This document shows, one piece after another, positions 1,998 through 22,910 of a stretch of DNA of 26,574 nt. How positions within the stretch are numbered: the stretch's first letter is position 1; every line of letters starts with the position of its first letter. A program made the translations under genes and the position numbers. Below the pieces are notes generated by a model. The model had not been told where the DNA came from, ran no database searches, and saw only the letters and a list, made by a program, of their open reading frames with translations. This DNA comes from Candidatus Heimdallarchaeota archaeon. GTDB taxonomy: Archaea > Asgardarchaeota > Heimdallarchaeia > Heimdallarchaeales > Kariarchaeaceae. The stretch spans positions 1 through 26,574 of the forward strand of contig JASBSB010000011.1 of NCBI GenBank assembly GCA_030149205.1. Direction: 5' to 3'.

Positions 1998-2282
1998 TTT
2001 GGGGGAAATAAACCTTTTAAGTCCATCATACCTGTCAAACTCAACCCAACAAAATCTTTTTTTGTTTCCTCTGACCCATACCAATTCAATCCCTTCCTCA
2101 TCTAATCCACCATCTACAACATCTTCTCCATCCCGTTCATAGATGAACAATGCAGAATCGGTGTCAATAAGGATATCAATGGGGATATCATTTAAATTTA
2201 GCTTTAATTTGAGGAATTTTTTAGCTGCTTCTATCACTTGATCCTCAGAGTAATTTTCCAATAAACGGTTCCTCATGATCAT
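1980..2282 (-). CDS. Small hypothetical protein, paralog A' (100 aa)
   Basis: 19/27 identity to paralog A at the N-terminus, plus a shared C-terminal W..F..YDGL..[YF]I motif. Confidence 0.85.
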   Translation of the reverse strand: MIMRNRLLENYSEDQVIEAAKKFLKLKLNLNDIPIDILIDTDSALFIYERDGEDVVDGGLDEEGIELVWVRGNKKRFCWVEFDRYDGLKRFISPKSIPIT

Positions 2283-2304
2283 AATTAATACTTCTATGTT
2301 CTCC

Positions 2305-2324
2305 TAATTAATTGTTTCGACCCT
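2305..2324 (-). promoter_or_regulatory. Archaeal BRE-TATA promoter of paralog A'
   Basis: Minus strand reads GAGGGTCGAAACAATTAATT; the last C of CGAAAC (2314) is 32 nt from ATG 2282. Confidence 0.65.
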
Positions 2325-2402
2325 CAATTATTTCTTAAGAATAGTATAGCTCATAAACACATTCTGTATTTTTGAGAGAGTATGTGCAGTATTCTACATT
2401 CC

Positions 2403-2513
2403 GTTTCAATATTGTTAGAACCCTTTTAGGGATCGAAGAAACTCGTAAAATTTCCCTTTATTCAATACTGTTCTTGGTTGGAACCAAGTTAGAACCTCTG
2501 CAAAAATTGATAC
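2403..2513 (+). CRISPR. Degenerate repeat-spacer-repeat mini-array
   Basis: 2403-2439 matches the array repeat at 30/37 with the hairpin intact; 2477-2513 matches at 24/37 with the hairpin broken. Both alignments are ungapped, and the copies are separated by a 37-bp spacer (2440-2476). Confidence 0.85.
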
Positions 2514-2535
2514 TCATAAGAATTGAAAAAATAAA

Positions 2536-3921: not shown

Positions 3922-4099
3922 ACAATTTCACACTGCAAAAAAACATATAAGTTCAAAATTAAATTAGTGTTGAAAATTTATTTGTTAACAATTCCGAAAA
4001 GAGTCAACAATTGAAATTGTTATGTAGGTCAGAATTTTCGACAACTCATACACATAATGATATCAAAATAAATTTAAGCCATCTATTTATAGTTGCAAA

Positions 4100-4534
4100 A
4101 TGAGCGACAAGGCAGAACGACCAAAAATTTATTCTCTTGAGCCCGTCTTACAGGTTAACAATTTACCAGAGACCCTGAGGTATTATGAGGAGACCCTCTG
4201 CTTCCACATCGACTGGGTCTGGCCAGATGATGACAAGCGAGACACAGCTGATCATGCTTCAGTCTCTTTGGGGCAGCAAGAGGGTGAGGAAGAGGAGCAT
4301 TCACACCATCACTCACATATACAGCTGAGCCAGGCAGATAAGACCCCTGTGGCAAACTCTGGCTGGCTGTACTTTAGGGTTGAGTCAGACATAGATGAAC
4401 TTTATGAGTTATTTAAAAGGGGAGGAGCAAGCATAAGCTCTGAGATAAACAGCTATCCCTGGGGTATGAGAGAATTTGATATTCGTGAGAACAATGGTCA
4501 TGTCTTCCGCTTTGGAAAGCCTGTGGAACAATAG
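4100..4534 (+). CDS. VOC/glyoxalase (bleomycin-resistance-like) family protein
   Basis: PVLQVNNLPETLRYYEETLCF at the N-terminus and LYFRVESDIDELYE...YPWGMREFDIRENNGHVFRFG at the C-terminus; acidic/His-rich insertion EEEEHSHHHSH. Confidence 0.9.
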   Translation: MSDKAERPKIYSLEPVLQVNNLPETLRYYEETLCFHIDWVWPDDDKRDTADHASVSLGQQEGEEEEHSHHHSHIQLSQADKTPVANSGWLYFRVESDIDELYELFKRGGASISSEINSYPWGMREFDIRENNGHVFRFGKPVEQ

Positions 4535-4577
4535 TCACAACACCAAAAATTAAAAGTCACATATTCATCCTGCAAGT

Positions 4578-5567
4578 ATGAAGGTTGTTTTTCAATATCA
4601 GGGTCTGATATCTGACGAATACAAGCGAACATTGGAGGAAAACCTTCCAGAAGATGTTCAGTTGGTCTTTATGGAGAACAACGAAGAGGAGGGGCTGCTC
4701 AGAGAGATAACCGACGCAGAGGTGTTTGTGGGTTACAAGCTTACTAAACCACTCATTGATACAGCCAAAAAGCTACGACACATCCAGATTCCTTGGACTG
4801 GTTTTAATGATCTTGGTGCTGAGTTCCTAGAGGGAAGGGATGATATCACTGTCTCCAACTCTCATGCCAACTCTCAGGCAATTGCTGAGCATGCGGTCGC
4901 ACTTCTTCTCGCTGCTTCCAAGCTTCTTACTCAGAGAGATCGAGGGATGAGATCTGGTGACTGGTCCACAAGGTATGAGGATGTCAACTCTGTATGGCTC
5001 ACTGATCGAACCACTGCAATTATTGGATATGGTGCGATTGGGAAAAAGGTTGCAAGAATGATGAAGCATGGATTCAACAACAGAATCCTGGCTATAAAGC
5101 GTACACCTCTCAAATCTGATGATCTTGCGGAGTTTGTGGGTGGTATGGAGGATCTAGACTCAGTGTTACCTCAGGCAGACTTTGTTGTTGTCGCTGTTCC
5201 ACTTACAAACGAGACACGGAGGTTAATCACAGCCAAACAATTTGAGCTGATGCGTGAAAATACTGTTATTGTGAATATCGCCAGAGGTGAGGTTATAGAT
5301 GAGGAGGCATTATATAGTGCACTCAAGGAGAGAAAGATTCATTCAGCTGGTATCGATGTCTGGTATAACTATCCAAGGGGAGAACAGCGAGTTGTAAAGC
5401 AAAATTACCCATTTGAGGAGCTTGATAATATTGTCATGACCCCTCACAGTGCGTTCAAGGTTGAAAAGAGAGAGAGGGTGTTTCTCTCTGACATTGTTAC
5501 CAACCTTCAAAGGTTGTATGAGGGAAAGGAACCAATAAACAGGGTGTATTTGGAACTTGGGTATTAG
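4578..5567 (+). CDS. D-isomer-specific 2-hydroxyacid dehydrogenase (PGDH-like)
   Basis: AIAEHAVALLLA, Rossmann motif IIGYGAIG, NIARGEVIDEEAL, GIDVW and catalytic MTPH. Confidence 0.95.
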   Translation: MKVVFQYQGLISDEYKRTLEENLPEDVQLVFMENNEEEGLLREITDAEVFVGYKLTKPLIDTAKKLRHIQIPWTGFNDLGAEFLEGRDDITVSNSHANSQAIAEHAVALLLAASKLLTQRDRGMRSGDWSTRYEDVNSVWLTDRTTAIIGYGAIGKKVARMMKHGFNNRILAIKRTPLKSDDLAEFVGGMEDLDSVLPQADFVVVAVPLTNETRRLITAKQFELMRENTVIVNIARGEVIDEEALYSALKERKIHSAGIDVWYNYPRGEQRVVKQNYPFEELDNIVMTPHSAFKVEKRERVFLSDIVTNLQRLYEGKEPINRVYLELGY

Positions 5568-5589
5568 AAAAAAATACAATTACATAATA

Positions 5590-6414
5590 TTACACCAATG
5601 TAATAAATTGAGATTGAAAGAGATGGTTAATAATATCAAATCTTCCTAAACCCACGGTTCTTCCTCTCCCCACCCCTGTAAAAAATCCTAATAAAAATAG
5701 GCTATTTATGAAATCAACATATTTTTCATGTACTCCATAGGTTACTTGGCCTACCCAGCCTTGGTGTATTATCTTTCTATTTATTCTAACCGTGCTCAAC
5801 CTTCCTTTAGCTTTTTCAATCCAAATTTTATTTTGAAGATCGATCACTTCTAAAGAATTCTCGTTAGTCCATTTTTTCCATAATGAAATTAGGTTGGTTA
5901 TTAAATTCGTAGGTTCTGGCCATTTGAAGTACTGCTTCCCTTGAGTAAAAGACAAAGGTGATTTAAAGTTTAATTGAAAGATTGAGTTTTCAATTATTGA
6001 GTCAGATAGATCGAATGATTTCATATTAATTTGATATGGTGAGAACTTTAGACCATAGGCACTTACAATTTGAATAGATTGTAAAAACATAGGAAACAAC
6101 CTAATTAATTCTAAGTTTGAGGTTATTACATCGAAAAATACCATTTCACCTTTCACAAGTGATTTTGATTTTAAATAATCTATTGGGGAGTTTTTACAGG
6201 TATTGCATTTCCATCTGTAAATTTGTGATATTGATAAATCTAATACTCCTCTTGACATTCGAAAAGAATCAAAAAGGCTTTTGCTTTTCTCTCTCAACAG
6301 GTCAAAAAATAACTTGTTTGCTATTTGACCAGAAAAATATGGAGTTCTTTTGGAACTCTGAGCAATTAGAAACACCCTGAAAAATTTTATATTTATGAAA
6401 TAGCTTCTACTCAT
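5590..6414 (-). CDS. cas6: CRISPR-associated endoribonuclease Cas6
   Basis: C-terminal G-rich loop GFFTGVGRGRTVGLGRF; FKSPLSF..G....WPEP..L..NL...W motif; ATGA overlap with cas3. Confidence 0.9.
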   Translation of the reverse strand: MSRSYFINIKFFRVFLIAQSSKRTPYFSGQIANKLFFDLLREKSKSLFDSFRMSRGVLDLSISQIYRWKCNTCKNSPIDYLKSKSLVKGEMVFFDVITSNLELIRLFPMFLQSIQIVSAYGLKFSPYQINMKSFDLSDSIIENSIFQLNFKSPLSFTQGKQYFKWPEPTNLITNLISLWKKWTNENSLEVIDLQNKIWIEKAKGRLSTVRINRKIIHQGWVGQVTYGVHEKYVDFINSLFLLGFFTGVGRGRTVGLGRFDIINHLFQSQFITLV

Positions 6415-9035
6415 GTTGCATCAAATTTAGGATTAAACCCTCCTAAAGGGGAATACTGGGTGAATTCGCTTTCCTTAACCAAGTATAACTCTACACCAGG
6501 GTATTTTAATTTATTATAGTTGGTGATTTGATTCAATAACTTGCTTGAAATTCCTATCATATATAAATTCAATAATTTCAATGAAGATTTTTTGGTTATA
6601 TCAAATTTATTGAGTAAATTATCGGGTAAAATTGCAAGACTTTTGTCGTAAGTCTCTTCAATTAATTTAAAATCTGAAAAGAGCTTACCCAAATTCGAGG
6701 TATCTAGTAAATCTGTTAACTCTGAAGTAATTTTCCTCATTTTTATTTTTTCATAAAATTTAGGTATCAATGACCTGAGTTTAATTTCATCCAAGTTATT
6801 TTCCTTTAATAAGAGCTCGTTTGTTATTTCTAAGGTGACTAAATCATATAAGTTCGCATATGGTTTGCCTTCATCATTCACAAGGTTGAATAAAGTTATA
6901 ACTCCTCTATCATTTCGATTATTTCTGTTACATCTTCCTGCAACTTGAATTATTGAATCTAATGGTGCCATATCTCTGTAAACTCTAGAAAAATCTAAAT
7001 CAATTCCTGCTTCAATCACCTGTGTTGTCACTAAAATCACTGGTTTGTTCTTGGCTAAAAGGTTTTCAACTTCCTGTATAGTGTTCTTTCGATCTATAGG
7101 TCTTACCCAGGTTGAGAGTAGAAAAGTTGAATAATTTTTGAATTCAGAATCAACAAAATCATAAACATCTCTGCAAGACTTTTTTGTATTTAAAACAATT
7201 AAAATTTGGTTGTTTTTATTCACCTCAATATTGTTTTTGAAGTATTCTATTAAATCTTCCATACCTATTTCACTGAGGTCTTCAAGGAAATTTATCTCAT
7301 ATCTATTGATTTGATCTAATATATCCCTTGGTAAATTTAATGTTGGTCTCACAATTGATTTCACTGAATTTACCAAGGGGCGAGGATTGGTGGCAGAACC
7401 AATAATAAAGTCAATATTCAGATATTCGATCATAAAATTAATTGTTTTTGATAATATTTTCCAATATTTTGGAGGCAAAGATTGAACCTCATCTAAAATA
7501 ATTATCGAACCAATTAATCTATGAAATCTTAAAATTGCCTTTTTCTTGCCTGAAAAAATTAGATTCAAGAAAGATACAAATGTTGTAACAATGAATTGGT
7601 TGTGCCATAATCTTGTTGAATAAGATGCTTTTCCAACAATTATTTCATCTACACTTTCAACAAAATTCTCTCCTTTAACAATAAATTGAGGTAGATCAGA
7701 GAAGCTATGATGGATAGTTAAAAGCTCCTTTTTGCCCAATTTATTTAGACTCAGGATTTCATCAACTACATTTCCAACCTGATCAGTTATAGAAATAAAG
7801 GGTAAAGCATAAATTATTCTTCGAAATTTTTTGGTTTGAATAGGATGTTTGTTTGCTAATCTGACAGCTAAATTTATCATGGCATATGTTTTTGCAGAAC
7901 CTGTTGGTGCTTCAATAATGTAGGCTGATGGTTTATCTGATAAATCATTAGAATCTAACACATTGAACAAAATATTTCTTAACCTGTTTAACTGACTAAG
8001 AGTTGTATTTCCGTTTGGTTTGAATTTTAAATTTATTGTTTTTTTAACAGTATCTAAAGGAATTTTTCCAGTGTACGACCAATCAAATTCATCGGAATGG
8101 GAATCTGTGTTTTGGATAAATGTTCTGGCATCCCACTCATCTAGGTCACATAGCATAGAATGAAGAGTTAGATAAAAAGGTAAAAATGATGATAAATTTT
8201 TTGCATTATTCCAATCATCCGTAATATCCTCTATTAAGTCTTCAAACTCATCTGATACTATTTCTTTCTTTATTGGTTTCAAATAATTATCCAAATTACT
8301 AACTTTATATCTGACTATTTCTCCAAGTTGATCTAATGATTTTTTAATAATGTCTTTTCGATCTCCAGTGAATTTTTCACTAAAATCACAAGAAATCAAA
8401 ATCAAATCGTCTATATATCCAATTTGTTTATTTTGTCCTGGAATTCCTATTTCAAACTTTTTGCAAAATACATGTGTCTTCATTAGTGATATTGTTGAAA
8501 GTGTATCTACCTTTGCCTCTTTTAAATATTCTAACAAATTATGTTTTATTAGAGGAGAATGATGGCTGGCAATGGAATAAGGGATAAGAATCTTGAATAA
8601 TGAGATAAAGTTATCTGTAAGGTCTCCTAACGAGTTCTTTATTTCATTTTTTTCAATAGCAAAATAATTTTCTAACAGCAAATATGAGAAAATAGAGCTA
8701 GTTTTTGTATGATAACTTAGTGGGTTTATTGTGGCTTTAACCTTATTTTGTCTTATTTTGTATTGAAACACTGGTGAAATTTTTCCAAAATCATGACAAA
8801 CCACTAAAATTTTCATAAGGTCTTCAACAATATATTCTGATATTTTTAATTTTGTTGAATCTGGGGCTTCTCCAAAACTTCTGAGAGAATCTTTTGCAAG
8901 TTCAAAAAACGGTAATCTAAATTTTAAATCAAATAATTTTTTTCTTAAGTTCGATAAATGATGTTCTAGTGGTTGCCCGGGTCTAGCTAATAACCGATTA
9001 TAAGATGAAAATTTTTCTTCAATTGATTTCGTCAT
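6411..9035 (-). CDS. cas3: Cas3 HD nuclease-helicase
   Basis: LEHHL, CHDFGK, ASHH and LCDLD (HD domain); APTGSAKT, LDEVQ, GSAT, TQVIEAGIDLDF and QVAGRCNR (helicase motifs). Confidence 0.97.
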   Translation of the reverse strand: MTKSIEEKFSSYNRLLARPGQPLEHHLSNLRKKLFDLKFRLPFFELAKDSLRSFGEAPDSTKLKISEYIVEDLMKILVVCHDFGKISPVFQYKIRQNKVKATINPLSYHTKTSSIFSYLLLENYFAIEKNEIKNSLGDLTDNFISLFKILIPYSIASHHSPLIKHNLLEYLKEAKVDTLSTISLMKTHVFCKKFEIGIPGQNKQIGYIDDLILISCDFSEKFTGDRKDIIKKSLDQLGEIVRYKVSNLDNYLKPIKKEIVSDEFEDLIEDITDDWNNAKNLSSFLPFYLTLHSMLCDLDEWDARTFIQNTDSHSDEFDWSYTGKIPLDTVKKTINLKFKPNGNTTLSQLNRLRNILFNVLDSNDLSDKPSAYIIEAPTGSAKTYAMINLAVRLANKHPIQTKKFRRIIYALPFISITDQVGNVVDEILSLNKLGKKELLTIHHSFSDLPQFIVKGENFVESVDEIIVGKASYSTRLWHNQFIVTTFVSFLNLIFSGKKKAILRFHRLIGSIIILDEVQSLPPKYWKILSKTINFMIEYLNIDFIIGSATNPRPLVNSVKSIVRPTLNLPRDILDQINRYEINFLEDLSEIGMEDLIEYFKNNIEVNKNNQILIVLNTKKSCRDVYDFVDSEFKNYSTFLLSTWVRPIDRKNTIQEVENLLAKNKPVILVTTQVIEAGIDLDFSRVYRDMAPLDSIIQVAGRCNRNNRNDRGVITLFNLVNDEGKPYANLYDLVTLEITNELLLKENNLDEIKLRSLIPKFYEKIKMRKITSELTDLLDTSNLGKLFSDFKLIEETYDKSLAILPDNLLNKFDITKKSSLKLLNLYMIGISSKLLNQITNYNKLKYPGVELYLVKESEFTQYSPLGGFNPKFDAT

Positions 9036-9045
9036 ACCTTGCTTC

Positions 9046-9900
9046 CTAAAGAAATGTAATTGTTTTATTTAACTTTTTAATTTCTACCCCTTTTTCTGAT
9101 TCTAGTTTAGCCTTAAATTCATCCTCTGGTCTGACCAAAAATACAGATTCAAGTCTTTTTGCTATGATATTCCATAATGACAATTTAGTCTTATCATCTG
9201 CTTTTTTCATTGCCATAGGTATATTCAACAAGGTTGGTGTGCTTAAGAGAGAAAGAGGTATTTCCTTCATAAATTCTGAGTCAATTGCAGAGTAAGGGAC
9301 AATTGTATTTACTTTATAAATTATATCTGTACTGATTTTTGTCCCCTCAAACTCTCCTACATATTCTACCCTCGCTAATAAGTTTGCATGACCTAAATAT
9401 GGTGGATAATAATACTTTTTATTTTCTAACCTATCCTTGAGCTTCGTATATATTTCTAAATTTTCGGTGTGAATATACAACTGATAACTTGCATCTTCAA
9501 TCAGATCGAGTTTTGTTGGGGCATTCATGCCTCTGCTATATTTAGCTCCTCTGTACCTACGTGCAAAATCCTTGGCATTTAATTCAATTAACTCTGCACC
9601 AAATGGGTCTTCAGGTATCAAAATTTTGGAATTTTGGATTGTGATGGTTTCCTTAACTCTAATATAATTAACTTTAAGAGAATTTCTCTTAATCGGATTT
9701 AAAATTTCCACGGCAATATTTAGTGAGCTTAACGGATTTTTTACATCCCAATATTGATTTCTAGGCTCTCCTAAAATCGCACCTAATAACCCAAGTACTG
9801 CGGTACGTGGTGGAAAAGGGTAACTCAAGTTTTCTCTTGTTGTTTCGGGGATTCTAAAATGAGCGAAATCTCCTTCTAACTTTACAACCAAAACCTTCAT
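9046..9900 (-). CDS. cas5: Cas5, type I-B (Cas5h)
   Basis: GDFAHFRIPET...SYPFPPRTAVLGLLGAILG; YYPPYLGHA. Confidence 0.95.
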   Translation of the reverse strand: MKVLVVKLEGDFAHFRIPETTRENLSYPFPPRTAVLGLLGAILGEPRNQYWDVKNPLSSLNIAVEILNPIKRNSLKVNYIRVKETITIQNSKILIPEDPFGAELIELNAKDFARRYRGAKYSRGMNAPTKLDLIEDASYQLYIHTENLEIYTKLKDRLENKKYYYPPYLGHANLLARVEYVGEFEGTKISTDIIYKVNTIVPYSAIDSEFMKEIPLSLLSTPTLLNIPMAMKKADDKTKLSLWNIIAKRLESVFLVRPEDEFKAKLESEKGVEIKKLNKTITFL

Positions 9901-9909
9901 ATGCTATCC

Positions 9910-10845
9910 TCATATATCTTCTAAAGCAAAATCACTTAAGAAATCTTTCAAGCTGTTACTTGATTCTTTTCCATCTGTAAATGTTAATCCTCTATCCTCT
10001 TTAATCTCGATGAAATCAATTTGATCTGAGAATTTTTTTATCCTTTCGAGAAATCCACTGATATTTACTCTAGCATCTTCTGATCCTTTTAAATTTAACT
10101 CATTTTCAAGAACAAACCCTTTATCTAAATCTCCTATTTGGAAATCATTTTCTTTTGAAGCTACAGAAAGTAGTAATCTTGGAAGATGGTTAGTTTTACT
10201 ACGAGTGTTAATTCTTTTGGTACCATTCCATAAGCCATCATAGACATATTTTAGGTCGTCCTCAGTAAATCCAACCTCTTTAGCATTATGTTCACAAGCA
10301 ATCCCATGAAACTTAATTAAAGAGTAATCAAGAACATGGAATTCTCCAATTGACCCCTGTCCCTTTCCTTCCTCGGAGGCAATAGTTGAAGAAATGGTAA
10401 AAGAATTGATATTTGGTTTGTTCATTGATCTTGCAATTGAAAATTGAACTGGGCCTGTTAAGGCGACATTAGCATCTTTAACAGTACCAACAACACCAAA
10501 AGACCTGACATCAATAAATTTTTCAGGCAATGATTTTCGGATAAGTTCACGAGTATCTCCTTTCACCACTCCTATTTCTAACTCTTGTTTAATTAATTCT
10601 TTCATGGAGAGGACATTTCCTTTGTTTTCTCCTTCATCAGATTTAACAACTCTTCGAATGAGCACCTTGTTGTTTTCAGTTTCCCTTGTAAGCCAATAAT
10701 CTCTTATTGTGCGTTTTAACCTTAGATCAGTGACTATATTGTAATCATTCTCATCCATTCTAGGTCTGTTTTCATCATCGGGATCTCCATTAGGATTAGA
10801 GTCCCGTACATCATAAATAAATACTATTTCTCTTCTTTGTTTCAT
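9910..10845 (-). CDS. cas7: Cas7, type I-B (Csh2)
   Basis: SNPNGDPDDENRPRMD, VTDLRLKRTIRDY, FIDVRSFG, TGPVQFS and RSKTNHLPRLLL. Confidence 0.96.
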   Translation of the reverse strand: MKQRREIVFIYDVRDSNPNGDPDDENRPRMDENDYNIVTDLRLKRTIRDYWLTRETENNKVLIRRVVKSDEGENKGNVLSMKELIKQELEIGVVKGDTRELIRKSLPEKFIDVRSFGVVGTVKDANVALTGPVQFSIARSMNKPNINSFTISSTIASEEGKGQGSIGEFHVLDYSLIKFHGIACEHNAKEVGFTEDDLKYVYDGLWNGTKRINTRSKTNHLPRLLLSVASKENDFQIGDLDKGFVLENELNLKGSEDARVNISGFLERIKKFSDQIDFIEIKEDRGLTFTDGKESSNSLKDFLSDFALEDI

Positions 10846-13647: not shown

Positions 13648-14868
13648 CTATTCCTTTACCCACCTCTGGATCTCAGCCTCCAGGTTACTCAGATCTTTTC
13701 TTCCGAACACCTTGACAGATCTATCCACTAGGTAATCTCTGACCTCGTTCTCCAATGCACTTTTGTTATCCGAGAGACATACCAACCCAAAGTATGTCTT
13801 CCAGCCAGCAATCTGTGTGGAGCGGATCATGACCTCAAATATCTTTTTCTTCAGCTCAGATTTTCCACCTCTCTTTGAATCTGAGACTGTGGAGACAGAA
13901 ACCACATACACCCGGTTTTTAACCAAAAACACCATGTCTAGCTCAAATTCAGGATCTTTGCTAGAGATGTTGGTTTTGAAGTCATCAATCACTCCTAACC
14001 TTGTAAGGTTTGAAAGTGCATCTGCTACGCGACTCTCGAGCCAGAACCCATCAAACCATTCTACAAGCTTCTTAATCCTCCTGAACTGAAGCTGTTTGGT
14101 TAGATCTGCGAGTCTGACCTTTTGGTTATTTGGATGTATCAGTTGCTTTAGCTCAGGGATATCAGCAAATGAAATTTCAATTCCATGTAACTCGGTCTCA
14201 GGTTTAACTTTCCTGTTTTTTTTCTTGTAAGCCTTTCTCAACTGTTTAGATTTGAAATTGAGCCACCTCTTATCATTCTCTTGTTTGCTTAGCAACTTGA
14301 TTAATGCATCGACCACCTTTCTTTGCTCATTTTTCAAAGGGACAGTTGGATCAAACTTTGTGTCCTGATGAAGTGATATAACCTCAGAAACTGTGAATGG
14401 AAGATTGATCTCCTCTTCATGAGTTTCAAGGCTTGGTACCTTAGTGATGATGAGACTCCAGGGTTTTCCCCGTATGTAAGAGATGACAAAATCTGCGTTT
14501 ATTCTCTGTAGATAAAAGAGTGTTGCCATTAACATTGGCTTGGTACCACCGGTGGAATCAAAATGGACATAAGGTTTTTGTGGGTGATTAAATACCGGAT
14601 CAAGTGACATTTTGAGTTCTTTCAGAATCTCCCCTTGATCAAATGGTGGGACTTCAATTCCAAGGATCTGTTGTTCCTTTCCCCTCTGATCTCTCTTCTC
14701 CTGAAAATTTCTTTTCCATTGTAATATCCTTGAAAAGATCGGCTCATTAGCCTTGGTGTACAGAATAAAGACATGGGGGGTGTCAGAGAAGAGTTTGATA
14801 ACTGTGACAGGAACAATTGGATTGGATCCTAAAAGGGTGATGAGTACACTTGGTTTCTTAAGTGTCAA
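13648..14868 (-). CDS. CARF + DUF1887 (PD-(D/E)xK-like) nuclease, Card1/Can2-like
   Basis: N-terminal CARF motifs LITLLGSNP and FDSTGGTKPM; C-terminal FDGFWLE...ELDMVF....VYVVSVST...KKKIFE...RSTQIAG...GLVC. Confidence 0.8.
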   Translation of the reverse strand: MTLKKPSVLITLLGSNPIVPVTVIKLFSDTPHVFILYTKANEPIFSRILQWKRNFQEKRDQRGKEQQILGIEVPPFDQGEILKELKMSLDPVFNHPQKPYVHFDSTGGTKPMLMATLFYLQRINADFVISYIRGKPWSLIITKVPSLETHEEEINLPFTVSEVISLHQDTKFDPTVPLKNEQRKVVDALIKLLSKQENDKRWLNFKSKQLRKAYKKKNRKVKPETELHGIEISFADIPELKQLIHPNNQKVRLADLTKQLQFRRIKKLVEWFDGFWLESRVADALSNLTRLGVIDDFKTNISSKDPEFELDMVFLVKNRVYVVSVSTVSDSKRGGKSELKKKIFEVMIRSTQIAGWKTYFGLVCLSDNKSALENEVRDYLVDRSVKVFGRKDLSNLEAEIQRWVKE

Positions 14869-14961: not shown

Positions 14962-15621
14962 TTAATTTTCCATTAGAGCAACCAGAACCTTTCCTGTATC
15001 TGTCAGAGAGACGAGCCTTTCCTTTCCCTGATAGTCAGATTCAATCAGGTCCTGGTTCTCAAATTCTTTGATATATCTTGTCATTGATTGAACAGTTCTA
15101 AGCCCAGTTTCCTTTTTGAGTAGGGAGAGGGAAATGGGTCTGTTAATCTCTCCCAATGTTTTAATAATTTTCAGGCGGGTGTCTCTGAAATCTCTGGTAG
15201 ACACTCGGGGCATAGGTACCCAAATAAGCTCTCCTATACCATCGTCCTCACGAAGTTTTTTGAGATAAAAAACAGGACTTGCGGTCATATATCCAACGAG
15301 AAGAAGTGCTGAGGTCATTATTTTTGTCCCTCCAGTCATATTTAGTGTGATCTTCAGCTTGGGGTCACTCTGGTATTTTTTACGAACCTTCTTGATTCCT
15401 TCAATCATGTTAAGAAGGCAGTTCATAAGATCAAATTTATCTATAATATGATTGTAGACCTTAATACGTAGTGGGTCATTCTCATAAAACTTCTTTATGG
15501 ATGCCAGTTCTGGAGAGTCATCAGAATCAGTGAACAGATGGATTTCATCCATCGGAACATGCCTAAGGGCATTGAGCACCACATCTGGTGACTTCCCTAG
15601 ACTGGCAAATTGTACTCTCAT
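14962..15621 (-). CDS. csa3: Csa3-like CARF-wHTH transcriptional regulator
   Basis: CARF motifs FASLG and LNMTGGTKIM; C-terminal winged helix SLSLLKKETG...QSMTRYIKEFENQDLIE...GKERLVSLTDTG. Confidence 0.85.
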   Translation of the reverse strand: MRVQFASLGKSPDVVLNALRHVPMDEIHLFTDSDDSPELASIKKFYENDPLRIKVYNHIIDKFDLMNCLLNMIEGIKKVRKKYQSDPKLKITLNMTGGTKIMTSALLLVGYMTASPVFYLKKLREDDGIGELIWVPMPRVSTRDFRDTRLKIIKTLGEINRPISLSLLKKETGLRTVQSMTRYIKEFENQDLIESDYQGKERLVSLTDTGKVLVALMEN

Positions 15622-15642: not shown

Positions 15643-15705
15643 TTATTTAATTTGTTGTTTATTATAAACTGATTTTGTTTAATGTCTGCATAATGTATTT
15701 AATAT
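15643..15705. promoter_or_regulatory. Divergent csa3/viperin promoter region with central palindrome GTTTAT-T-ATAAAC (15657-15669)
   Basis: TATA-like TTAAATAA (minus strand, 15650-15643) about 25 nt from csa3 ATG 15621; TTTAATAT (plus strand, 15698-15705) about 25 nt from viperin ATG 15726; a 6-bp inverted repeat lies between them. Confidence 0.5.
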
Positions 15706-15725
15706 ATTGCTGTCAGTTTATTGTT

Positions 15726-16649
15726 ATGAGTAACAGCTCAAACCAACCAGAAATCATTCCAAAACCCCCCGTCATTGAACTCATCCCTAAAAACATCCCT
15801 ATCATCGACTATAAACCAGAAATCAAACTTTCTCGAGATTTAATCTCAGTGAATTATCACATCATCAAAGCCTGTAATTACCGTTGCGTCTTCTGCTTTG
15901 CAAAATTTAATCAGGTGTCAAGAAACTATCTCTCCTTGGAAGATTCTAAGAGTATTATTCAAGAATTACATCTATTTGGGACTGAGAAGATCACTTTTGT
16001 TGGAGGTGAACCTACCCTGGTACCTCATCTTCCAGAACTTGTTAGCTATGCCAAATCACTAGGATTGACTACAATGATAGTAACAAACGGAACCAAACTA
16101 TCTGAGGAATATTTGAAAAGGTTTAACGGGAATCTAGACTGGGTTGGTCTGAGTATCGACAGTGGAAAGGAAGACATAAACAGAGAGTTAGGACGAGGAA
16201 ACGGTTCTCATGTGTCGCAAACATTGAAAAATGTAAAACTTTTAAGGGAGTTTGGTATTAAAATTAAAATAAATTCTGTGATTAACCTGTTAAATTGGCA
16301 GGAGGATATGTCTTGGTTAATTGAAAGCATTAACCCATTCAGATGGAAGGTCTTTAAGCTGTTACCTATCGAAGGAGAAAATGATGAATCAAAGCATCTG
16401 GAAATCTCTGATGAACAGTATTTTTCGTTTATTCAAAACCACAGGCATCTGAATCCCGTTGTTGAGACCAACGATGCGATGACAGACAGCTATGTGATGA
16501 TTGATCCAAATGGCTGCTTTTTCAATAACTCAAATGGGAGGTTGAATCATGGGCCACCGATTTTAGCAGTTGGTGTCGAAAAAGCCTTTAGCCTTTCAAA
16601 CTTTCAAAAAGAAAAATTTGAGGCAAGAGGAGGTGTGTATAAATGGTAG
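15726..16649 (+). CDS. pVip: Prokaryotic viperin (RSAD2-like radical SAM, ddhNTP synthase); likely start ATG 15726 rather than TTG 15675
   Basis: SVNYHIIKACNYRCVFCF (CX3CX2C), KITFVGGEP, TNG, DWVGLSIDS, KINSV, RWKVFK.L..EGEN and SYVMIDPNG.F are viperin-type motifs. Confidence 0.92.
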   Translation: MSNSSNQPEIIPKPPVIELIPKNIPIIDYKPEIKLSRDLISVNYHIIKACNYRCVFCFAKFNQVSRNYLSLEDSKSIIQELHLFGTEKITFVGGEPTLVPHLPELVSYAKSLGLTTMIVTNGTKLSEEYLKRFNGNLDWVGLSIDSGKEDINRELGRGNGSHVSQTLKNVKLLREFGIKIKINSVINLLNWQEDMSWLIESINPFRWKVFKLLPIEGENDESKHLEISDEQYFSFIQNHRHLNPVVETNDAMTDSYVMIDPNGCFFNNSNGRLNHGPPILAVGVEKAFSLSNFQKEKFEARGGVYKW

Positions 16650-17365
16650 ATGTCAAACTTTCGAAAATTGTTATCAAGTATGGTGGAAGTCAGTTGTATG
16701 ATGAATCAGGAACAATTCTGCCAGAAAGATTTAAACTTCTTGCAGAACTTATTATAAGGCTTTGTGACACAGGCATCTCTACCTATGTGGTTTTAGGCGG
16801 GGGGAAACCAACGAGGGATATTGTTCAAAAATTCTCCCGATCCCTCGTAAATTCTAAGTTTGGACTTAATGCAACACAACTTGACCATATTTCCATTGAG
16901 GTGACAAGGATTCATTCTCAGTTGTTAAGATTCATGTTATCAGGTAAAATGGAAACAAGGTTTGTAACTAGGTATGAGGAATTATTTGATGAGGTTCTTC
17001 CCTCTACAGTTACAGTGGCTGGAGGTCTCTTTCCTGGTCAATCAACTAATGGAACAGCTGCGTTGGTGTCAGAAGCAGTAGAAGCTGATCTGTTAGTCAA
17101 TTTTTTTGGATTTGACAATATTCACTCAGAAGACCCAACCACAAATAGGAAAGGTAAAACTCTGACATCACTGTCATATGAAGACCTCAACAAATTAATT
17201 AGTGGGTTTAAGCAAGAGCCAGGCCATTATGAGCTGTTTGATCTCTTGGCATTGAACTACGTAAAGAGGTCAAAGATTCCGGTTTTATTTCTTAATGGGA
17301 ATAATCCTCTTAAGCTTAAAGAATATCTCTCTGGAACGAAATTGGGGACGTTGGTTAAAGCATGA
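16643..17365 (+). CDS. Archaeal-type uridylate kinase (PyrH, amino-acid-kinase fold) homolog, diverged
   Basis: KIVIKYGGS, VVLGGGK.TR, VAGGLFPGQST...AAL..E...ADLL, EDP and final GTLV; overlaps viperin by 7 nt. Confidence 0.88.
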   Translation: MVDVKLSKIVIKYGGSQLYDESGTILPERFKLLAELIIRLCDTGISTYVVLGGGKPTRDIVQKFSRSLVNSKFGLNATQLDHISIEVTRIHSQLLRFMLSGKMETRFVTRYEELFDEVLPSTVTVAGGLFPGQSTNGTAALVSEAVEADLLVNFFGFDNIHSEDPTTNRKGKTLTSLSYEDLNKLISGFKQEPGHYELFDLLALNYVKRSKIPVLFLNGNNPLKLKEYLSGTKLGTLVKA

Positions 17366-17547
17366 ATGAAAATAAACTACCAACCTGTTCATCTGTATAT
17401 GTTCAGAATATAGCTCATTTAAATGACAGCATTCTTTTTTATTTAACAATTTTTCACATTGGAACAAGAAATCTTTTGAACTGTAAGTTTAAATTGGTCT
17501 TAGGATTTATTTTTCCTGAGTATTTGGTAAGGAGGGTGAAAAAATGA
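17362..17547 (+). CDS. 61-aa ORF bridging the kinase and helicase genes; may not be a true protein gene
   Basis: ATGA start/stop overlaps at both ends (17362-17365 and 17544-17547); no recognisable motif. Confidence 0.3.
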   Translation: MNENKLPTCSSVYVQNIAHLNDSILFYLTIFHIGTRNLLNCKFKLVLGFIFPEYLVRRVKK

Positions 17548-20354
17548 GTTCCAACCTATATTACAGAAATCTACCAGAAGTACCTAGTGACAAAGCTGCA
17601 CGAGCAATTAAAATAAGTACAGATAAAACTCTTACCCCTTTTTTTAATTATTATCTTACCTATAGAAAGCATGAGACTGAGAAAGTCTTTGAGGTAACCT
17701 TGAAGCTTATTGAATGGAATGAATTTTTTGTAAAATATGATCTAAACAATCGAAAAAATCAATTAGAATCAAAACTCAAAACTTACGGTAAAGTACCTCA
17801 AGAATTGAGAGAAATTAGAAAATTCATCGAGTATAGAAACACCAATAATTTGGGATTATACATGATTGATATAACTGATGAAACAGTCGATGATGAAAAA
17901 GCATTAAGGGAAATAACTGGAAGAGATACAATTCTTTCTCTAAGTCGGTCTGTGAGGACAGAGAGCAAACTAAACTATGAACATATCTCAAGAAGATATG
18001 ATGTCATAGTCATGAAGATTTTTTATAATAAGAAGGGAGGTAACGAAGGATCATCAGTCAGAATTCCCAGAGAATCAATCAAGGTTTACTATAAACCTAA
18101 TGTCAAGGTTCTAAACTTACTTATTAATGCACTGGAAAAACTTCAAAATACTCCTGCAGTACACAACCGACCTCTTTTAAAATTATTCGAAAACAGGTCA
18201 AGGGTACGTTTTGAAATCCCTGTGAAAGCAACAATTAGAGATAATGAATGGTTATTTCTAACGGATCAAAGTAGATCTGGGAATGATTTACAACGTGAAT
18301 TTGTAAAAATGGCTATTGAAACCCCTGATTTTGCTATTCTGGACGGACCACCTGGATCAGGGAAGACTACAACTATATTAGAATTAATTTATCAACTTGT
18401 GATTCGGGGTCAGAAGATACTTATGGTAGGATCAACTCATGCGGCGGTGGATAATGTAATAGAGAAATTAATGGACCCAGACTTCTCATATAGAGAAGCA
18501 CTAGATGACTTAGTTTTACCTATTCGGATTGGAAATCCTGAATATCATTCTATATCTGATTTTGCTGCAGATTATACAGAAGGTGAGTTATGGAAGACAA
18601 AAAGGGCTGAACAACTGGAATGGTTGGCTTCAATTCAGAATAAGACAGAATCACAGGAAGAGTTTGAACAAATGCTACTAAACAAAAAGGACTCTAGTAT
18701 CTTGAAATTTTCTGTTTTACGTTCCACATCACTTACCTGTGCAACAACTGCTGGGATAACCAATCATTCAATGATCAGAGCGAATTCTAATGGAACTTCA
18801 ACCAACAAACCCTTTTTTGATTTTTTGATCCTAGATGAGGCCAGTAAAACCACATTTCAAGAATTTTTAATTCCTGCCCTTTACGCAAAAAAATTTATTA
18901 TAATTGGTGACGTTTTACAATTATCTCCATTTGTTGATGAGGATGGCTTATCATCAAATATAGGTAGCGTATTAGATTTTTCTGAGGAACAGAGGTATTG
19001 GGCTACTGTCGTCAATAATTTTTTCCAGATCAATGCTTCACCAAAACGAGCGTTAATACTTTATGACCACAAAGAATCTAATTTAATTTATGATGCTTTC
19101 AGGGGTTCTAAGTACAATATAGCCCCTCTTACCACCAAGAATCAAGATTATGTGTTTGCGGATATAATTTTCGCTACAAAATCTGATTTAAAAAAATATC
19201 ACGATCTACTTCCTTCAACACTAACACTTTTTTTGGACGCAAGAACATCTGAAGGTAAAAGCTTTTTTGTTCGAGATTCAAAATTCATCCCAATCACGAA
19301 CAACTTAAGTCATTTTCCCATCCTATATCAATATCGAATAAACTTTGTTCAACAGAAAAACAAAGAGAGGAAAAAGTCGTTAACATCAATACTTCATATA
19401 AGATCCCAAGATGATACATGGGCTGATGCTCTAAGTTGGAGGTTAATTCGGTTGAACGAAATTGAAAAAAACCCAACAAACTCTAATGAGTATCAGAACA
19501 GGCTATTAAACAGCATCATAAATCTTTTGCCGAAGGATGACAAAATTAGAAAAAAAATAGAAAACGAGATTGGAGACATGTATGAAATTGCCCTTCCTTC
19601 AATTCTTAAGCTCTTACAGGAAGGTTTAGGTGAGACCAAATTTAGACCAAAATCTGATATAACAACGACACTATCTTCAGGGTTACCAGAAGAAGCATTA
19701 AAAGCAAGGTATGTTCGATTAACCCATCAAAATCGCATGCATCCAGACATAAGTAAATTTGCCCGAGAAACATTCTATGAGAATCAAGCATTGCATGATT
19801 CAAATCGCCTAAATAGAGGTCTCCCCCTTTATCCTCTATATAACAATAAACGGATGGTATGGATTGATGTTGTTAACAAAACCCAAAGTGATCCAACTGT
19901 AAATAAACAAGAGATCAATCGTGTCTTCAAGGAACTTATTCAGTTATTAAAATACTTACAGAGATTTTCTGACCAGAATTGGAGTATTGCAGTATTGACG
20001 TTTTACAAGCGACAACGTCGTGAATTACTTAATGAATTTGATAAGAATCCAGAATTTAAGAAATTCAAATCCAAAAACTTCTACCCCAAAAATCAAAAGA
20101 ATATTCAAATTAAGATTGATGTAGTTGACTCATTCCAAGGACAGGAGGCGGATTTTGTGTTTCTATCTATGGTTCGAACGTTTGGGATTGGATTTCTTGA
20201 CAATCCGAATCGGTTAAATGTTGCTCTAACCAGGGCTAAATATCAACTCGTAATACTGGGTGATAATAAGCATTTCAAGAAACAAACCAGATCAGCTCAT
20301 CTTAAAAAGCTGGCTGAAATACCATCAGAAAGAGGAATAACTTATGATAATTAG
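17544..20354 (+). CDS. Upf1/DNA2-NAM7-like superfamily 1B helicase (936 aa)
   Basis: DGPPGSGKTT, STHAAVDNV, LDEASK, IGDVLQLSP, RMHPDI, VLTFYKRQ, VDSFQGQEAD and NRLNVALTRAK; SD-like GGAGGGTGA upstream. Confidence 0.95.
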   Translation: MSSNLYYRNLPEVPSDKAARAIKISTDKTLTPFFNYYLTYRKHETEKVFEVTLKLIEWNEFFVKYDLNNRKNQLESKLKTYGKVPQELREIRKFIEYRNTNNLGLYMIDITDETVDDEKALREITGRDTILSLSRSVRTESKLNYEHISRRYDVIVMKIFYNKKGGNEGSSVRIPRESIKVYYKPNVKVLNLLINALEKLQNTPAVHNRPLLKLFENRSRVRFEIPVKATIRDNEWLFLTDQSRSGNDLQREFVKMAIETPDFAILDGPPGSGKTTTILELIYQLVIRGQKILMVGSTHAAVDNVIEKLMDPDFSYREALDDLVLPIRIGNPEYHSISDFAADYTEGELWKTKRAEQLEWLASIQNKTESQEEFEQMLLNKKDSSILKFSVLRSTSLTCATTAGITNHSMIRANSNGTSTNKPFFDFLILDEASKTTFQEFLIPALYAKKFIIIGDVLQLSPFVDEDGLSSNIGSVLDFSEEQRYWATVVNNFFQINASPKRALILYDHKESNLIYDAFRGSKYNIAPLTTKNQDYVFADIIFATKSDLKKYHDLLPSTLTLFLDARTSEGKSFFVRDSKFIPITNNLSHFPILYQYRINFVQQKNKERKKSLTSILHIRSQDDTWADALSWRLIRLNEIEKNPTNSNEYQNRLLNSIINLLPKDDKIRKKIENEIGDMYEIALPSILKLLQEGLGETKFRPKSDITTTLSSGLPEEALKARYVRLTHQNRMHPDISKFARETFYENQALHDSNRLNRGLPLYPLYNNKRMVWIDVVNKTQSDPTVNKQEINRVFKELIQLLKYLQRFSDQNWSIAVLTFYKRQRRELLNEFDKNPEFKKFKSKNFYPKNQKNIQIKIDVVDSFQGQEADFVFLSMVRTFGIGFLDNPNRLNVALTRAKYQLVILGDNKHFKKQTRSAHLKKLAEIPSERGITYDN

Positions 20355-21396
20355 CTTTACAACATCCTTTACTACATATAAAATTGCAGCTCTTGCTGAA
20401 ATTGGTGTGGAAGGTGAGGATAAAGGGTATATGGTCTATCTCAAAGCCATAAAAGAGGCTCAAGGATCAGATCCGATGAAATACCTAAAAGAAAACCTAT
20501 TGAAAAAATTTCCAAAAACAACATCATATAATGTAATAACAGAGCTGCAAGCATTACAGTTAGTTGATGAATATGGAAAAATAACAAGTGTTGGAGAAGA
20601 TGCACTTCAAACTGAAACAATTTACTTCCCAAGCAGGGGTATCTTTAATTTCGAATTTGTTAAAAATACTCCCATGAAATCTTCTGTTATTGATATTACA
20701 GAAAACCGTTCCAAATTAATTAAAGAGGTTAATGTTTCGGACGAAATTGATATAGACCAAGGGCAAAGATTCAAGTTATTGGATGGGAGAAATATAGTAG
20801 TATTAAGTTTAGAAGAAAAGGGACAAAAGGTAAAAGAAAATTCTACCAGATCAAAAATTGTTTGTGAATTTGTTCATGATGGTGGATGGAGCCTTTGGGT
20901 CAGAACGAACAGCAATGACAAGATAAAAGTAGAATTATCAGATGAATTTATACAGCTTAACATCCATGAACGGATATTCGAATATTACAAGAAAAACCCC
21001 TATGACGACGACTCGATCCTGGTAAAGTTTGATGAGCTTAATGAAAAAGAGCTTCAAACCTTTAAAGGAAACAGAGTAGTCAAAGATTTAAAAATTCCAG
21101 AGTATAACCTTAGTGTAAATTTACAAATTGAGGATATAAAATTGTTTCCAGCCAACTCTCAAGAAGCAATTAAGTGGGCACTAAAACTCTTCACATCAAA
21201 TTACATGGGCTCATATTTAACACAGTCAGAGTGTGTGAATCTTTGGCAAGAAATGGTAAAAGAAATTCCTGAGTTTCAGGTTTATCCAGACCTGTATAAT
21301 ATTAGCTTTGAGACAATGTTAAAAGAAATTTTAGATACCTCAAAAAGCAAATTTTTGGTGGCACCTATAGATTTTAGATTGGAGGGTCTGGTGTGA
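20344..21396 (+). CDS. Hypothetical protein (350 aa), possible N-terminal winged helix
   Basis: Overlaps both neighbours (11 nt and 4 nt); ELQALQLVDEYGKITSVGEDAL resembles a wHTH wing motif. Confidence 0.7.
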   Translation: MIISFTTSFTTYKIAALAEIGVEGEDKGYMVYLKAIKEAQGSDPMKYLKENLLKKFPKTTSYNVITELQALQLVDEYGKITSVGEDALQTETIYFPSRGIFNFEFVKNTPMKSSVIDITENRSKLIKEVNVSDEIDIDQGQRFKLLDGRNIVVLSLEEKGQKVKENSTRSKIVCEFVHDGGWSLWVRTNSNDKIKVELSDEFIQLNIHERIFEYYKKNPYDDDSILVKFDELNEKELQTFKGNRVVKDLKIPEYNLSVNLQIEDIKLFPANSQEAIKWALKLFTSNYMGSYLTQSECVNLWQEMVKEIPEFQVYPDLYNISFETMLKEILDTSKSKFLVAPIDFRLEGLV

Positions 21397-22910
21397 TACC
21401 AACAAAGACGATTTCTAAAACCATTATCAATCACAAAGTCTTAAAAGGATTTTGGGAGATAAAAGAAAAAGACATTAACAATAGGAGCAAAGATAATGTA
21501 ATTCAAATGGGATTTGGAGATACAACAGTTAAAAAATTAATTTTGGAGTATATTACAAATGCCAAGGAGCATATCTTCCTTGCAAGTTTCATCCTTAGTG
21601 ATGATGAAATTGTAAAAGCTCTTCAGAACTCAACCAGTCGAGGTGTTAGATTTTATGTTTTGACCTCTAACGAGGCTCTTTTGGAGAAAGAGAGAAGGAC
21701 AGACAACTCAGAATTCACTGAATCTGTGGTGAACCATCATAAAAGTATCATTAAAAAATTGGAAAAGAGTGGATTGGTTAGAGGTTCACCGTTCCTTCAT
21801 GCAAAGTTCGTATTGGTTGATGTATTCTCAAACCCTAGAGGAGTCATGCTAACCTCTAATATCACTACAGAGGCTCTTACGAGAAATCCTGAGCTAGCAA
21901 TGATATTGCAAAAAGATCAAGTGAGTGAGCTGTTTAACATTTATCGATATGTTTTCTGGTCTCAAGCAGATCAGGAGCTAGCCAATCAAAAATGGGGCAA
22001 ATTCGAAAAGAGAAATGTACCACTTAAGTACTCTACTAAAATCATCACAACAATCAAAGGAAAAAACACATTGGAGAGGGATTTAATTAACTTACTTAAG
22101 CGATCTAATGGTAAGGTATACGTTGGCTCTTACAAACTCACAAAAAGCACAGACTTTTTTAAGGCTCTACTTGATTACGGTGAATCCAATGAGGTTGTCC
22201 TTTTTACAAGATTGCATCCTGCAAACCAAGAAGTCTATGATATTTTAACAGGCAAACCTAACTTTTCTCTTTACGCAGCAAAATATTTTCATGCAAAATT
22301 TGTTGTAACAAATATCGAGGGATTAATTATGACAGCAAACTTAAATGAACAATCTTTTGATGATGGATTTGAGGTAGCAGTAAAAATAGGATCAACAAAA
22401 GCATTTTCAGATATTGCAGATGAATGGATCAAATCACTGGAATATGAATTCATCCATCAAAAAGAGGTCTCTAAAATTAACTCTAAGCATGTGAAGATTT
22501 ACGACAAGCAAAAGTCGTCTTTCAATCAATTAGAGATTACTGAAAAGAATTTTTATGAAAACAAAGTTACAGAATCTATTGAAGAGTATCTACAAATGGA
22601 TGAAAATAGTATAAGAATCCCAACGTTAAACTATCAGAAATCAATTACAGTTACTTATAATGTAGAACCACCTAAGCTTCCTAAAGATGCTACAGAGATA
22701 AAGAAAAAAAGTGACCTAAAAAATCCAAAAATTCTGAAAGAATTTGAAGAGCTACTCTTTGACAAAAAAGATAGAAGTATTGTTCCACTTTATTTCTACA
22801 AGAATAAACTTTATTCTCCAGTAAAAGATATCAAAGCCTACGAAAAAACAAAGAAGAATACAACAAACATAACATCAGAGATGTTTAGTGTTGTAAGTGA
22901 AAGGATTTAG
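21393..22910 (+). CDS. Tandem phospholipase D (HKD) superfamily protein, probable nuclease
   Basis: HAKFVLVD...LTSN and HAKFVVTN...MTAN; HIFLASF motif; GTGA overlap with the upstream gene. Confidence 0.88.
   Translation: MIPTKTISKTIINHKVLKGFWEIKEKDINNRSKDNVIQMGFGDTTVKKLILEYITNAKEHIFLASFILSDDEIVKALQNSTSRGVRFYVLTSNEALLEKERRTDNSEFTESVVNHHKSIIKKLEKSGLVRGSPFLHAKFVLVDVFSNPRGVMLTSNITTEALTRNPELAMILQKDQVSELFNIYRYVFWSQADQELANQKWGKFEKRNVPLKYSTKIITTIKGKNTLERDLINLLKRSNGKVYVGSYKLTKSTDFFKALLDYGESNEVVLFTRLHPANQEVYDILTGKPNFSLYAAKYFHAKFVVTNIEGLIMTANLNEQSFDDGFEVAVKIGSTKAFSDIADEWIKSLEYEFIHQKEVSKINSKHVKIYDKQKSSFNQLEITEKNFYENKVTESIEEYLQMDENSIRIPTLNYQKSITVTYNVEPPKLPKDATEIKKKSDLKNPKILKEFEELLFDKKDRSIVPLYFYKNKLYSPVKDIKAYEKTKKNTTNITSEMFSVVSERI

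Follow-up and report, generated by a model that had tools for sequence, protein, structure and literature searches.

A viperin-linked kinase of the PyrH fold in a Heimdall-group archaeon

A viperin gene and a gene for a diverged PyrH-like kinase overlap by 7 nt on contig JASBSB010000011.1 of Candidatus Heimdallarchaeota archaeon, apparently an independent re-invention of the partnership between viperin and a nucleotide kinase. The window considered here is this complete contig (C11; 26.6 kb), part of an Asgard genome of 3.3 Mb. Viperins convert nucleoside triphosphates (NTPs) to 3'-deoxy-3',4'-didehydro-NTP (ddhNTP) chain terminators, and viperin is one of the few immune enzymes common to archaea, bacteria, and animals. 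So far, the linkage of viperin to a kinase has been regarded as an inherited feature that concerns a single family of P-loop kinases. The kinase described here has the amino-acid-kinase fold of archaeal uridine monophosphate (UMP) kinases, belongs to a clade found only beside viperins, and retains the catalytic and acceptor-site residues of its family. Genomes are labelled G### (G000 is the source genome), loci L###, contigs C#, and the two protein alignments A1 and A2.

The viperin-kinase pair

The viperin of the window is a predicted ddhNTP synthase. Its score is 303.7 bits for the NCBIfam model NF038283 (viperin family antiviral radical SAM protein; cut-off 180), and the PADLOC models for prokaryotic viperins (pVips) give 290-296 bits (best 295.6). 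The CxxxCxxC motif (C50/C54/C57) and the GGE motif (93-95) are invariant in the 78-sequence alignment A2, and the protein aligns end to end with mouse viperin 5VSL, including the C-terminal extension and beta8 loop (~175 bits against 5VSL/6Q2P). In-frame alternative starts lie at ATG 15693 and TTG 15675, and homologues can be aligned only from residue ~22-31 onwards.

The kinase ATG sits inside the viperin stop region, in the shared string ATGGTAG. This overlap and the Shine-Dalgarno-like GGAGGTG ahead of it (Table 1) are consistent with coupled translation of the two genes. The original prediction of a viperin joined by a 7-nt overlap to a diverged PyrH-type kinase holds in its open reading frames (ORFs), coordinates, and ATGGTAG junction. 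Among 12 related loci with gene calls, nine have overlapping genes (1, 4, or 7 nt) and three have a gap of 9-24 nt; because an overlap or short gap recurs across these loci, the arrangement is not a chance one. Complex prediction for the two proteins (alignments A2 and A1) gave a score of 0.00, which weighs neither way.

The substrate pocket of the viperin is of a generic kind. Its beta8 loop carries Asn at the position of mouse Cys314 and Leu at that of Lys319. Asn pockets are associated with "promiscuous" synthesis of ddhCTP, ddhUTP, and ddhGTP in prokaryotic and Asgard viperins, and Arg pockets with UTP-selective fungal viperins (Shomar et al.). An earlier suggestion that the pair hints at ddhUTP as the product is therefore not borne out by the viperin itself: since the Asn/Leu pocket is promiscuous, that hint comes solely from the family of the partner kinase.

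Table 1. Features of the viperin-kinase locus and its surroundings (window coordinates)
Feature	Position	Strand	Basis or remark
CARF-PD-(D/E)xK protein, Card1/Can2 type	13648-14868	-	PADLOC Csx1 / CARF4-PDDEXK 170 bits
CARF-winged-helix-turn-helix (wHTH) regulator, Csa3-like, divergent	14962..15621	-	Pfam Cas_APE2256, CARF_Card1, DUF6293 wHTH; PADLOC CARF3 86.9 bits
Palindrome GTTTAT-T-ATAAAC, candidate operator (GTTTATTATAAAC, putative CARF-wHTH target)	15657..15669	.	Regulator-viperin intergenic region
TATA-like ATTTAATATAT, ~24 nt before ATG 15726	15697..15707	+	Sequence reading; similar ATTTAATATA boxes in L011 and L072
Prokaryotic viperin (pVip), radical S-adenosylmethionine ddhNTP synthase (predicted), 307 aa	15726..16649	+	ATG 15726 to TAG 16649
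Shine-Dalgarno-like GGAGGTG in viperin 3' end, 7 nt upstream of kinase ATG	16629..16635	+	Sequence reading
Viperin-linked PyrH-like kinase, amino-acid-kinase fold, 240 aa	16643..17365	+	ATG 16643 to TGA 17365
AT-rich 178-nt kinase-helicase spacer	17366..17543	+	T-run, TTTATTTTTCC motif, strong Shine-Dalgarno GGAGGGTG for helicase
Upf1-like superfamily 1 (SF1) helicase	17544-20354	+	AAA_11/AAA_12; PADLOC MkoA 272 bits
Family-less 350-aa protein	20344-21396	+	Position between helicase and PLD gene
PLD-family protein	21393-22910	+	PLDc_2, DrmC-like matches

Recurrence and phylogeny of the pair

Nearly all of the 400 genomes of the phylum that were searched carry a single PyrH copy. A second copy, closer to the kinase of the window (162-186 bits, where housekeeping copies reach no more than 145 bits), occurs in five of the 400, all from the window's own family and spread over five genera; the other four genomes with the paralogue likewise have two PyrH copies each. 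When 1.84 billion representative proteins were searched exhaustively with HMMER, only about nine clusters at 50% identity lay above the gap that separates them from ordinary PyrH. Viperin stands directly upstream of the kinase at 14 of 14 distinct readable loci from assemblies and metagenome contigs, with only its C-terminal end present on short contigs. The adjacency first noticed in this one window is both recurrent and exclusive.

The kinase clade is monophyletic (support 100/99), with long terminal branches of 0.4-1.1 substitutions per site, and stands apart from all Asgard housekeeping PyrH sequences in the tree, the genome's own included. In the viperin tree, the kinase-linked viperins all fall within one 100/100 clade, on which the simplest history would be a single acquisition of the kinase and then a minimum of two or three losses. 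A census of the same 400 genomes found 30 viperin matches in 27 of them; 12 of the 30 occur in a helicase cassette or as a pair, and five of those 12 have the kinase.

The source genome has a second viperin (L007; G000:C5:723-1583), 57% identical to that of the window, at the start of its contig, where it is preceded by a PEP-utilising-domain gene and followed by an epimerase gene. It has neither kinase nor regulator nor helicase beside it and groups in a "solo" subclade that lies within the kinase-linked viperins.

A 577-nt contig from an unrelated hydrothermal-vent metagenome is ~91% identical to positions 17149-17724, a stretch that runs from the 3' end of the kinase gene through the spacer into the beginning of the helicase gene. 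Among the differences listed inside the kinase ORF, nine of 11 fall at the third codon position (192 others across the stretch were not displayed). Contigs of two other metagenomes match only parts of the stretch.

Kinase fold, conserved residues, and clade-specific changes

The kinase matches a single Pfam family, PF00696 (AA_kinase; 62 bits), and no P-loop family or PADLOC model. Its best NCBIfam model is TIGR02076 (pyrH_arch), at 135.3 bits for an equivalog cut-off of 158.05. An AlphaFold2 model built from 81 sequences has a predicted local distance difference test (pLDDT) score of 94.7 and a predicted template-modelling (pTM) score of 0.91, and UMP kinases make up all of its top 50 Foldseek matches in the PDB. 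These are led by Sulfolobus solfataricus 2J4J (template-modelling (TM) score 0.83/0.88) and Pyrococcus furiosus 2BMU, which together span TM scores of 0.83-0.90. The TIGR02076 match and the model's proximity to archaeal UMP kinases agree with the proposal of a diverged PyrH-fold paralogue. A separate housekeeping pyrH, whose presence bears directly on that proposal, lies on contig C2 of the source genome, adjoins aTrm56, and scores 218.6 bits against TIGR02076; its product is 34% identical to the viperin-linked kinase. NDK, PyrG, and the archaeal CMP kinase (Cmk) are also encoded elsewhere in the genome. P0017, a 2118-aa protein that matched the kinase, was rejected because the match is low-complexity junk.

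Residues were compared between 13 members of the viperin-linked clade and 96 housekeeping PyrH sequences. Although clade members are mutually only ~40% identical, they conserve K12, G14-G15, G52-G54, R58, D81, and G127-G128, together with P131-G132-Q133-S134-T135; K12, G52-G54, R58, D81, G127-G128, and the first four residues of the last segment are present in 13 of 13 members and T135 in 12 of 13. E144, N153, D158, Y196, L198, D200, R209, and S210 are conserved as well. In solved UMP kinases, such residues make up the catalytic centre and the loop for the UMP alpha-phosphate, contact the ribose 2'-OH, and build the base-binding hairpin (PMC12404492; PMC3082897). The family-invariant catalytic and acceptor-site residues are all retained in the clade, namely the Lys of K-x-GGS, the GGG loop, the Arg, the Asp that contacts the ribose 2'-OH, and GG-x-PG-x-ST. 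Because these residues are conserved across the clade, phosphoryl-transfer chemistry has very probably been retained.

Other positions have changed throughout the clade. G84S, N91H, A137G, and T155F are fixed, and position 130 is mostly aromatic. G84S immediately precedes the uracil-stacking residue, and N91H replaces the Asn that braces the glycine loop around the UMP alpha-phosphate. The original prediction listed three departures from housekeeping archaeal motifs, and the strings that it quoted are found in the kinase (PGQSTN at 131-136, FFGFDNIH at 154-161, and DHISI at 81-85), while GHTTD and TNVDGVY are present in Pyrococcus and Archaeoglobus PyrH. For this lineage, the changes from TNVDGVY to FGFDNIH and from D.IGI to DHISI are real. 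The third, from GHTTD to GQSTN, is not a departure: the genome's housekeeping PyrH and other Asgard PyrH proteins also carry PGQSTN (Sulfolobus has PGQSTA), so that the string is typical of the lineage.

The surrounding cassette

The pair usually forms part of a larger, conserved cassette of six genes that reads, in order, a divergent CARF-wHTH regulator, viperin, kinase, an Upf1-like SF1 helicase (870-936 aa), a family-less protein (345-423 aa), and a PLD-family protein (490-517 aa). In the window, the family-less protein has only a sub-threshold wHTH signal among Pfam matches at E<=1. The trio of helicase, family-less protein, and PLD-family protein follows viperin, with or without the kinase, at 17 loci or more.

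Viperin and trio can also part company. In G045, the viperin-kinase pair occurs alone in a type I restriction-modification locus, with neither regulator nor trio. Conversely, the trio at L067 (G312:C1:865500-878000; 1575-10303) overlaps the end of a type III-B cmr3-cmr4-cmr5-cmr6 operon and lacks viperin, and the trio at L068 (G185) lies behind a CARF-MarR regulator and two genes of no recognised function, again with no viperin. Neither G312 nor G185 has a second PyrH copy. The kinase belongs with viperin and not with the trio, since the pair stands alone in G045 and the genomes of the viperin-less trios have no second PyrH. The trio itself looks like an accessory module associated with type III CRISPR and CARF systems.

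Two of these loci have further peculiarities. At L095 (G045:C70:2248-4610), a 559-aa ORF encodes the C-terminal domain of HsdR (T1RH-like_C) and a complete viperin in one frame, and the gene for the PyrH-like kinase comes next; an hsdM fragment and a GIY-YIG/DUF4357 gene are also present. This ORF could be either a true fusion or the result of insertion of the pair into a decayed hsdR. At L012 (on a contig of GCA_037928875.1), a nucleotide-flavoured group of three genes on the minus strand (212-2684) lies just upstream of a viperin-kinase cassette and encodes a radical S-adenosylmethionine protein (387 aa), a uracil phosphoribosyltransferase, and a small P-loop AAA_17/AAA_18 kinase-like protein.

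Proposed role of the kinase and its alternatives

The explanation that we favour, with modest confidence, is that the kinase is a co-expressed pyrimidine nucleoside monophosphate (NMP) kinase that raises flux from UMP through UDP to UTP and CTP for viperin, analogous but not homologous to CMPK2. Viperin and a private nucleotide kinase would form one expression unit, in which a viperin with a promiscuous Asn pocket would turn NTPs into ddhNTP chain terminators. A paralogue of archaeal UMP kinase would have joined viperin in a single event, at the root of one clade of Heimdall-group viperins, and would have evolved fast since. With its phosphoryl-transfer and NMP-acceptor scaffold kept, it most likely still phosphorylates a pyrimidine NMP (UMP to UDP). 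Made in step with viperin, it would supply more UDP and hence UTP, and CTP by way of the genome's NDK and PyrG, and the raised flux would keep the viperin substrate from running out during infection. Its role would resemble that of CMPK2 beside vertebrate RSAD2, by means of a non-homologous fold. Fusions of viperin to P-loop kinases, and P-loop kinase neighbours, are common, which shows the selective logic of such a pairing. The kinase would be an accessory booster and not a core component, as sister cassettes do without it and the pair can move alone, and the CARF-wHTH regulator would presumably induce the pair.

Several observations weigh against this substrate-supply explanation. The cassettes nearest to that of the window, L071 and L072 (helicase 51-53% and regulator 63-67% identical), have no kinase; in both, viperin leads directly to the helicase across a spacer of ~200 nt, in which a search for a kinase remnant found none. 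The kinase is also absent from G053, which belongs to the window's own genus, and from G011, G015, G018, G074, G081, and G082. As the closest cassettes lack it, the kinase is optional and any benefit conditional. Comparison of the viperin pocket loop between kinase-linked and kinase-less relatives revealed no difference. The TIGR02076 score falls below the equivalog cut-off. The donor-site adenine/ribose motif N-x-T-x-V-DGVY-xx-DP is degraded, reading N-F-F-G-F-D-N-I-H-S-E-D-P in the kinase; Y161, which is Tyr in 93% of housekeeping copies, is variable in the clade, and the ribose-binding Asp164 is D, N, F, or L. With G84S and N91H near the base pocket and alpha-phosphate loop and the adenine motif degenerate, the preferences for acceptor and donor may both have shifted away from UMP and ATP.

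Some of these points would suit a neofunctionalised salvage kinase that maintains the product pool by re-phosphorylating ddhUMP or ddhCMP, or that prefers CMP over UMP, perhaps with donors other than ATP. We regard this as the main rival, though a less likely one. The substitutions fixed in the clade next to the base pocket and the alpha-phosphate loop (G84S, N91H, A137G, and the aromatic residue 130), the loss of the adenine-recognition motif (T155F, with Y161 relaxed and D164 variable), and the sub-cut-off TIGR02076 score all point towards it, as do the long terminal branches expected after a change of function. Against it, the residues that contact the phosphate, the ribose 2'-OH, and the base through the backbone in solved UMP kinases are all retained. 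A special paralogue might moreover be unneeded, since an ordinary PyrH might already accept ddhUMP: in the Thermus thermophilus UMP kinase, the only reported contact with the acceptor ribose is to its 2'-OH (PMC12404492).

A broader and more doubtful proposal would make the PyrH-like protein, no longer a plain UMP kinase, a dedicated ddh-nucleotide or CMP kinase with relaxed donor specificity that keeps the pool of antiviral ddhNTPs charged. The viperin-kinase pair would then be the metabolic arm of a programme inducible by cyclic oligoadenylate, in which the CARF-wHTH regulator turns on viperin, the kinase, and the module of Upf1-like helicase and PLD proteins. If true, such an inducible programme would connect viperin immunity with type III CRISPR signalling in archaea related to eukaryotes.

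PyrH enzymes form oligomers and are regulated by nucleotides, properties that would suit a dead or regulatory PyrH-like protein serving as a nucleotide sensor, as a scaffold or decoy that modulates viperin, or as a sensor of viral interference with pyrimidine metabolism. The decayed donor-site motif and fast evolution would fit such a protein, whereas the invariance of Lys12, the Gly loops, R58, D81, and D200 in the clade, with T135 kept in all members but one, would be unexpected for a pseudo-enzyme and makes this alternative unlikely. At least as unlikely is a kinase that serves the downstream trio or the entire cassette, perhaps through nucleotide signalling or the phosphorylation of a nucleic-acid-derived product, instead of viperin. 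At most loci the kinase does lie between viperin and helicase in one co-directional string. However, it always abuts or overlaps the viperin stop, is missing from both viperin-less trios that were read (L067 and L068) and from many cassettes of viperin and trio, accompanies viperin alone in G045, and is separated from the helicase in the window by the 178-nt AT-rich spacer. A chance neighbour or redundant housekeeping pyrH copy, as might be suspected of genes in a variable, island-like region where duplicated metabolic genes occur, is effectively refuted by the census, given linkage (mostly with overlap) at every locus, a monophyletic clade found nowhere else among the 1.84 billion representatives, and a separate housekeeping pyrH.

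Regulation and non-coding elements

A CARF-wHTH regulator occupies the same divergent position at L011, L012, L015, L017, L048, L063, L071, L072, L073, L080, L085, and L086, and is presumed to control the viperin promoter. A GTTTA(N3)TAAAC palindrome between regulator and viperin is shared by the window, L071, and L072, with variants in L073, L048, and L063. Its conservation spans cassettes whose regulators are only 30-67% identical, and the palindrome is likely the operator of the Csa3-like protein. The position of the TATA-like box fits a leaderless or short-leader archaeal mRNA. A scan for sigma-70 promoters and intrinsic terminators was set aside, as the host is archaeal.

The spacer between kinase and helicase has a motif, ATTTATTTTTCC (ATTATTTTTCCT-like), in common with the viperin-helicase spacer of L071. 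The spacer may act as an internal terminator or promoter, and the helicase trio may thus also have a transcript of its own. A 61-aa ORF in this interval (17362-17547) had no homologue by tblastn in any related locus; it was rejected as a gene and treated as non-coding spacer.

The Card1/Can2-type protein next to the regulator has counterparts in L011, L015, and L072 and is not part of every cassette. The window itself carries only a type I-B system, and the only Cas10-like gene found in the source genome lies on a separate contig, C8. There (L069; G000:C8:~15800-19400), a RAMP protein and Cas6 adjoin a 496-aa protein that has the second palm domain of Cas10/Cmr2 (mCpol-like). The 496-aa protein might supply cyclic oligoadenylate to the two CARF proteins of the window.

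Significance and comparison with known systems

The same partnership appears to have arisen a second time, on the basis of an unrelated fold, among those archaea of the Heimdall group that are closest to eukaryotes. Such a second origin would argue independently that viperin immunity is limited by the supply of substrate or by the salvage of product. Partners of viperin are undercounted when profile searches cover NMP kinases alone, given that five of the 30 Asgard viperin matches carry a PyrH-type kinase. With its altered base pocket and donor motif, the clade is a well-defined and cheap target in the search for a kinase that may handle ddh-nucleotides, and the cassette of CARF regulator, viperin, Upf1-like helicase, and PLD-family protein suggests that viperin might be one arm of a larger signal-controlled response.

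The regulatory side of the locus resembles Csa3-type CARF-wHTH systems and type III CARF modules in its divergent CARF-wHTH gene, the palindrome in the shared promoter region, and the adjacent Card1/Can2-like nuclease. Unlike in Csa3-type systems, the operon putatively under control is a viperin cassette and not a set of cas genes.

The downstream trio, and only the trio, recalls type I Mokosh (MkoA and MkoB) and the DrmC protein of DISARM, in that an Upf1-like SF1 helicase is followed by a PLD-family protein. The MkoA match covers only the C-terminal part of the helicase, and the PLD-family protein is DrmC-like (59 bits) with no MkoB match. The trio differs from both systems in the conserved extra protein of about 350 aa between helicase and PLD gene, and in its linkage to CARF genes, to viperin, and once to a cmr operon.

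As a protein, the kinase is closest to archaeal PyrH (TIGR02076, 2J4J, 2BMU), which it matches in fold (at the TM scores given above) and length. The motifs K-x-GGS, GGG-x3-R, D81, GG-x-PGQST(N), and Y-x-LFD are common to both. It is unlike archaeal PyrH in the fixed G84S, N91H, A137G, and T155F changes, the loss of DGVY, its long branches, and its place as an accessory copy in a defence cassette.

Linkage of viperin to kinases is known from vertebrate RSAD2-CMPK2, fungal viperin-CMPK1, and the neighbours and fusions of bacterial pVips (Shomar et al.). A profile search for NMP kinases recovered 484 viperin-linked kinases, reported for 5% of archaeal viperins (Shomar et al.), and such a search probably misses a PyrH-type partner. 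In the viperin-kinase fusions found here, the kinase part belongs to PF02223, the P-loop thymidylate-kinase family. A scan of longer viperin homologues found no AA_kinase fusion, only PF02223, SNF2, RING-like, and other partners, in a word-limited search that gives weak evidence. Likewise, tblastn with the kinase halves of seven fusions against the flanks of 19 further loci, a search of limited sensitivity, returned no P-loop kinase beside Asgard viperins, and none was detected beside viperin in any Asgard locus whose flanks were read. A literature search that did not extend to Bernheim et al. (2021) and its neighbourhood tables brought up no paper connecting uridylate kinase, pyrH, or the amino-acid-kinase family with viperin.

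Since both the fusions and the published partners of viperin are P-loop NMP kinases, convergent recruitment, as originally proposed for the PyrH-fold partner, is a fair description. Like RSAD2-CMPK2, the Heimdall-group pair links a predicted ddhNTP synthase tightly to a probable kinase of pyrimidine nucleotides; gene order is shared, and presumably also the logic of NTP supply. Unlike CMPK2, CMPK1, and the PF02223 partners, its kinase has the PyrH fold and not that of P-loop NMP kinases, an analogous and non-homologous solution that would have arisen separately from the P-loop partnerships, in one Heimdall-group viperin clade.

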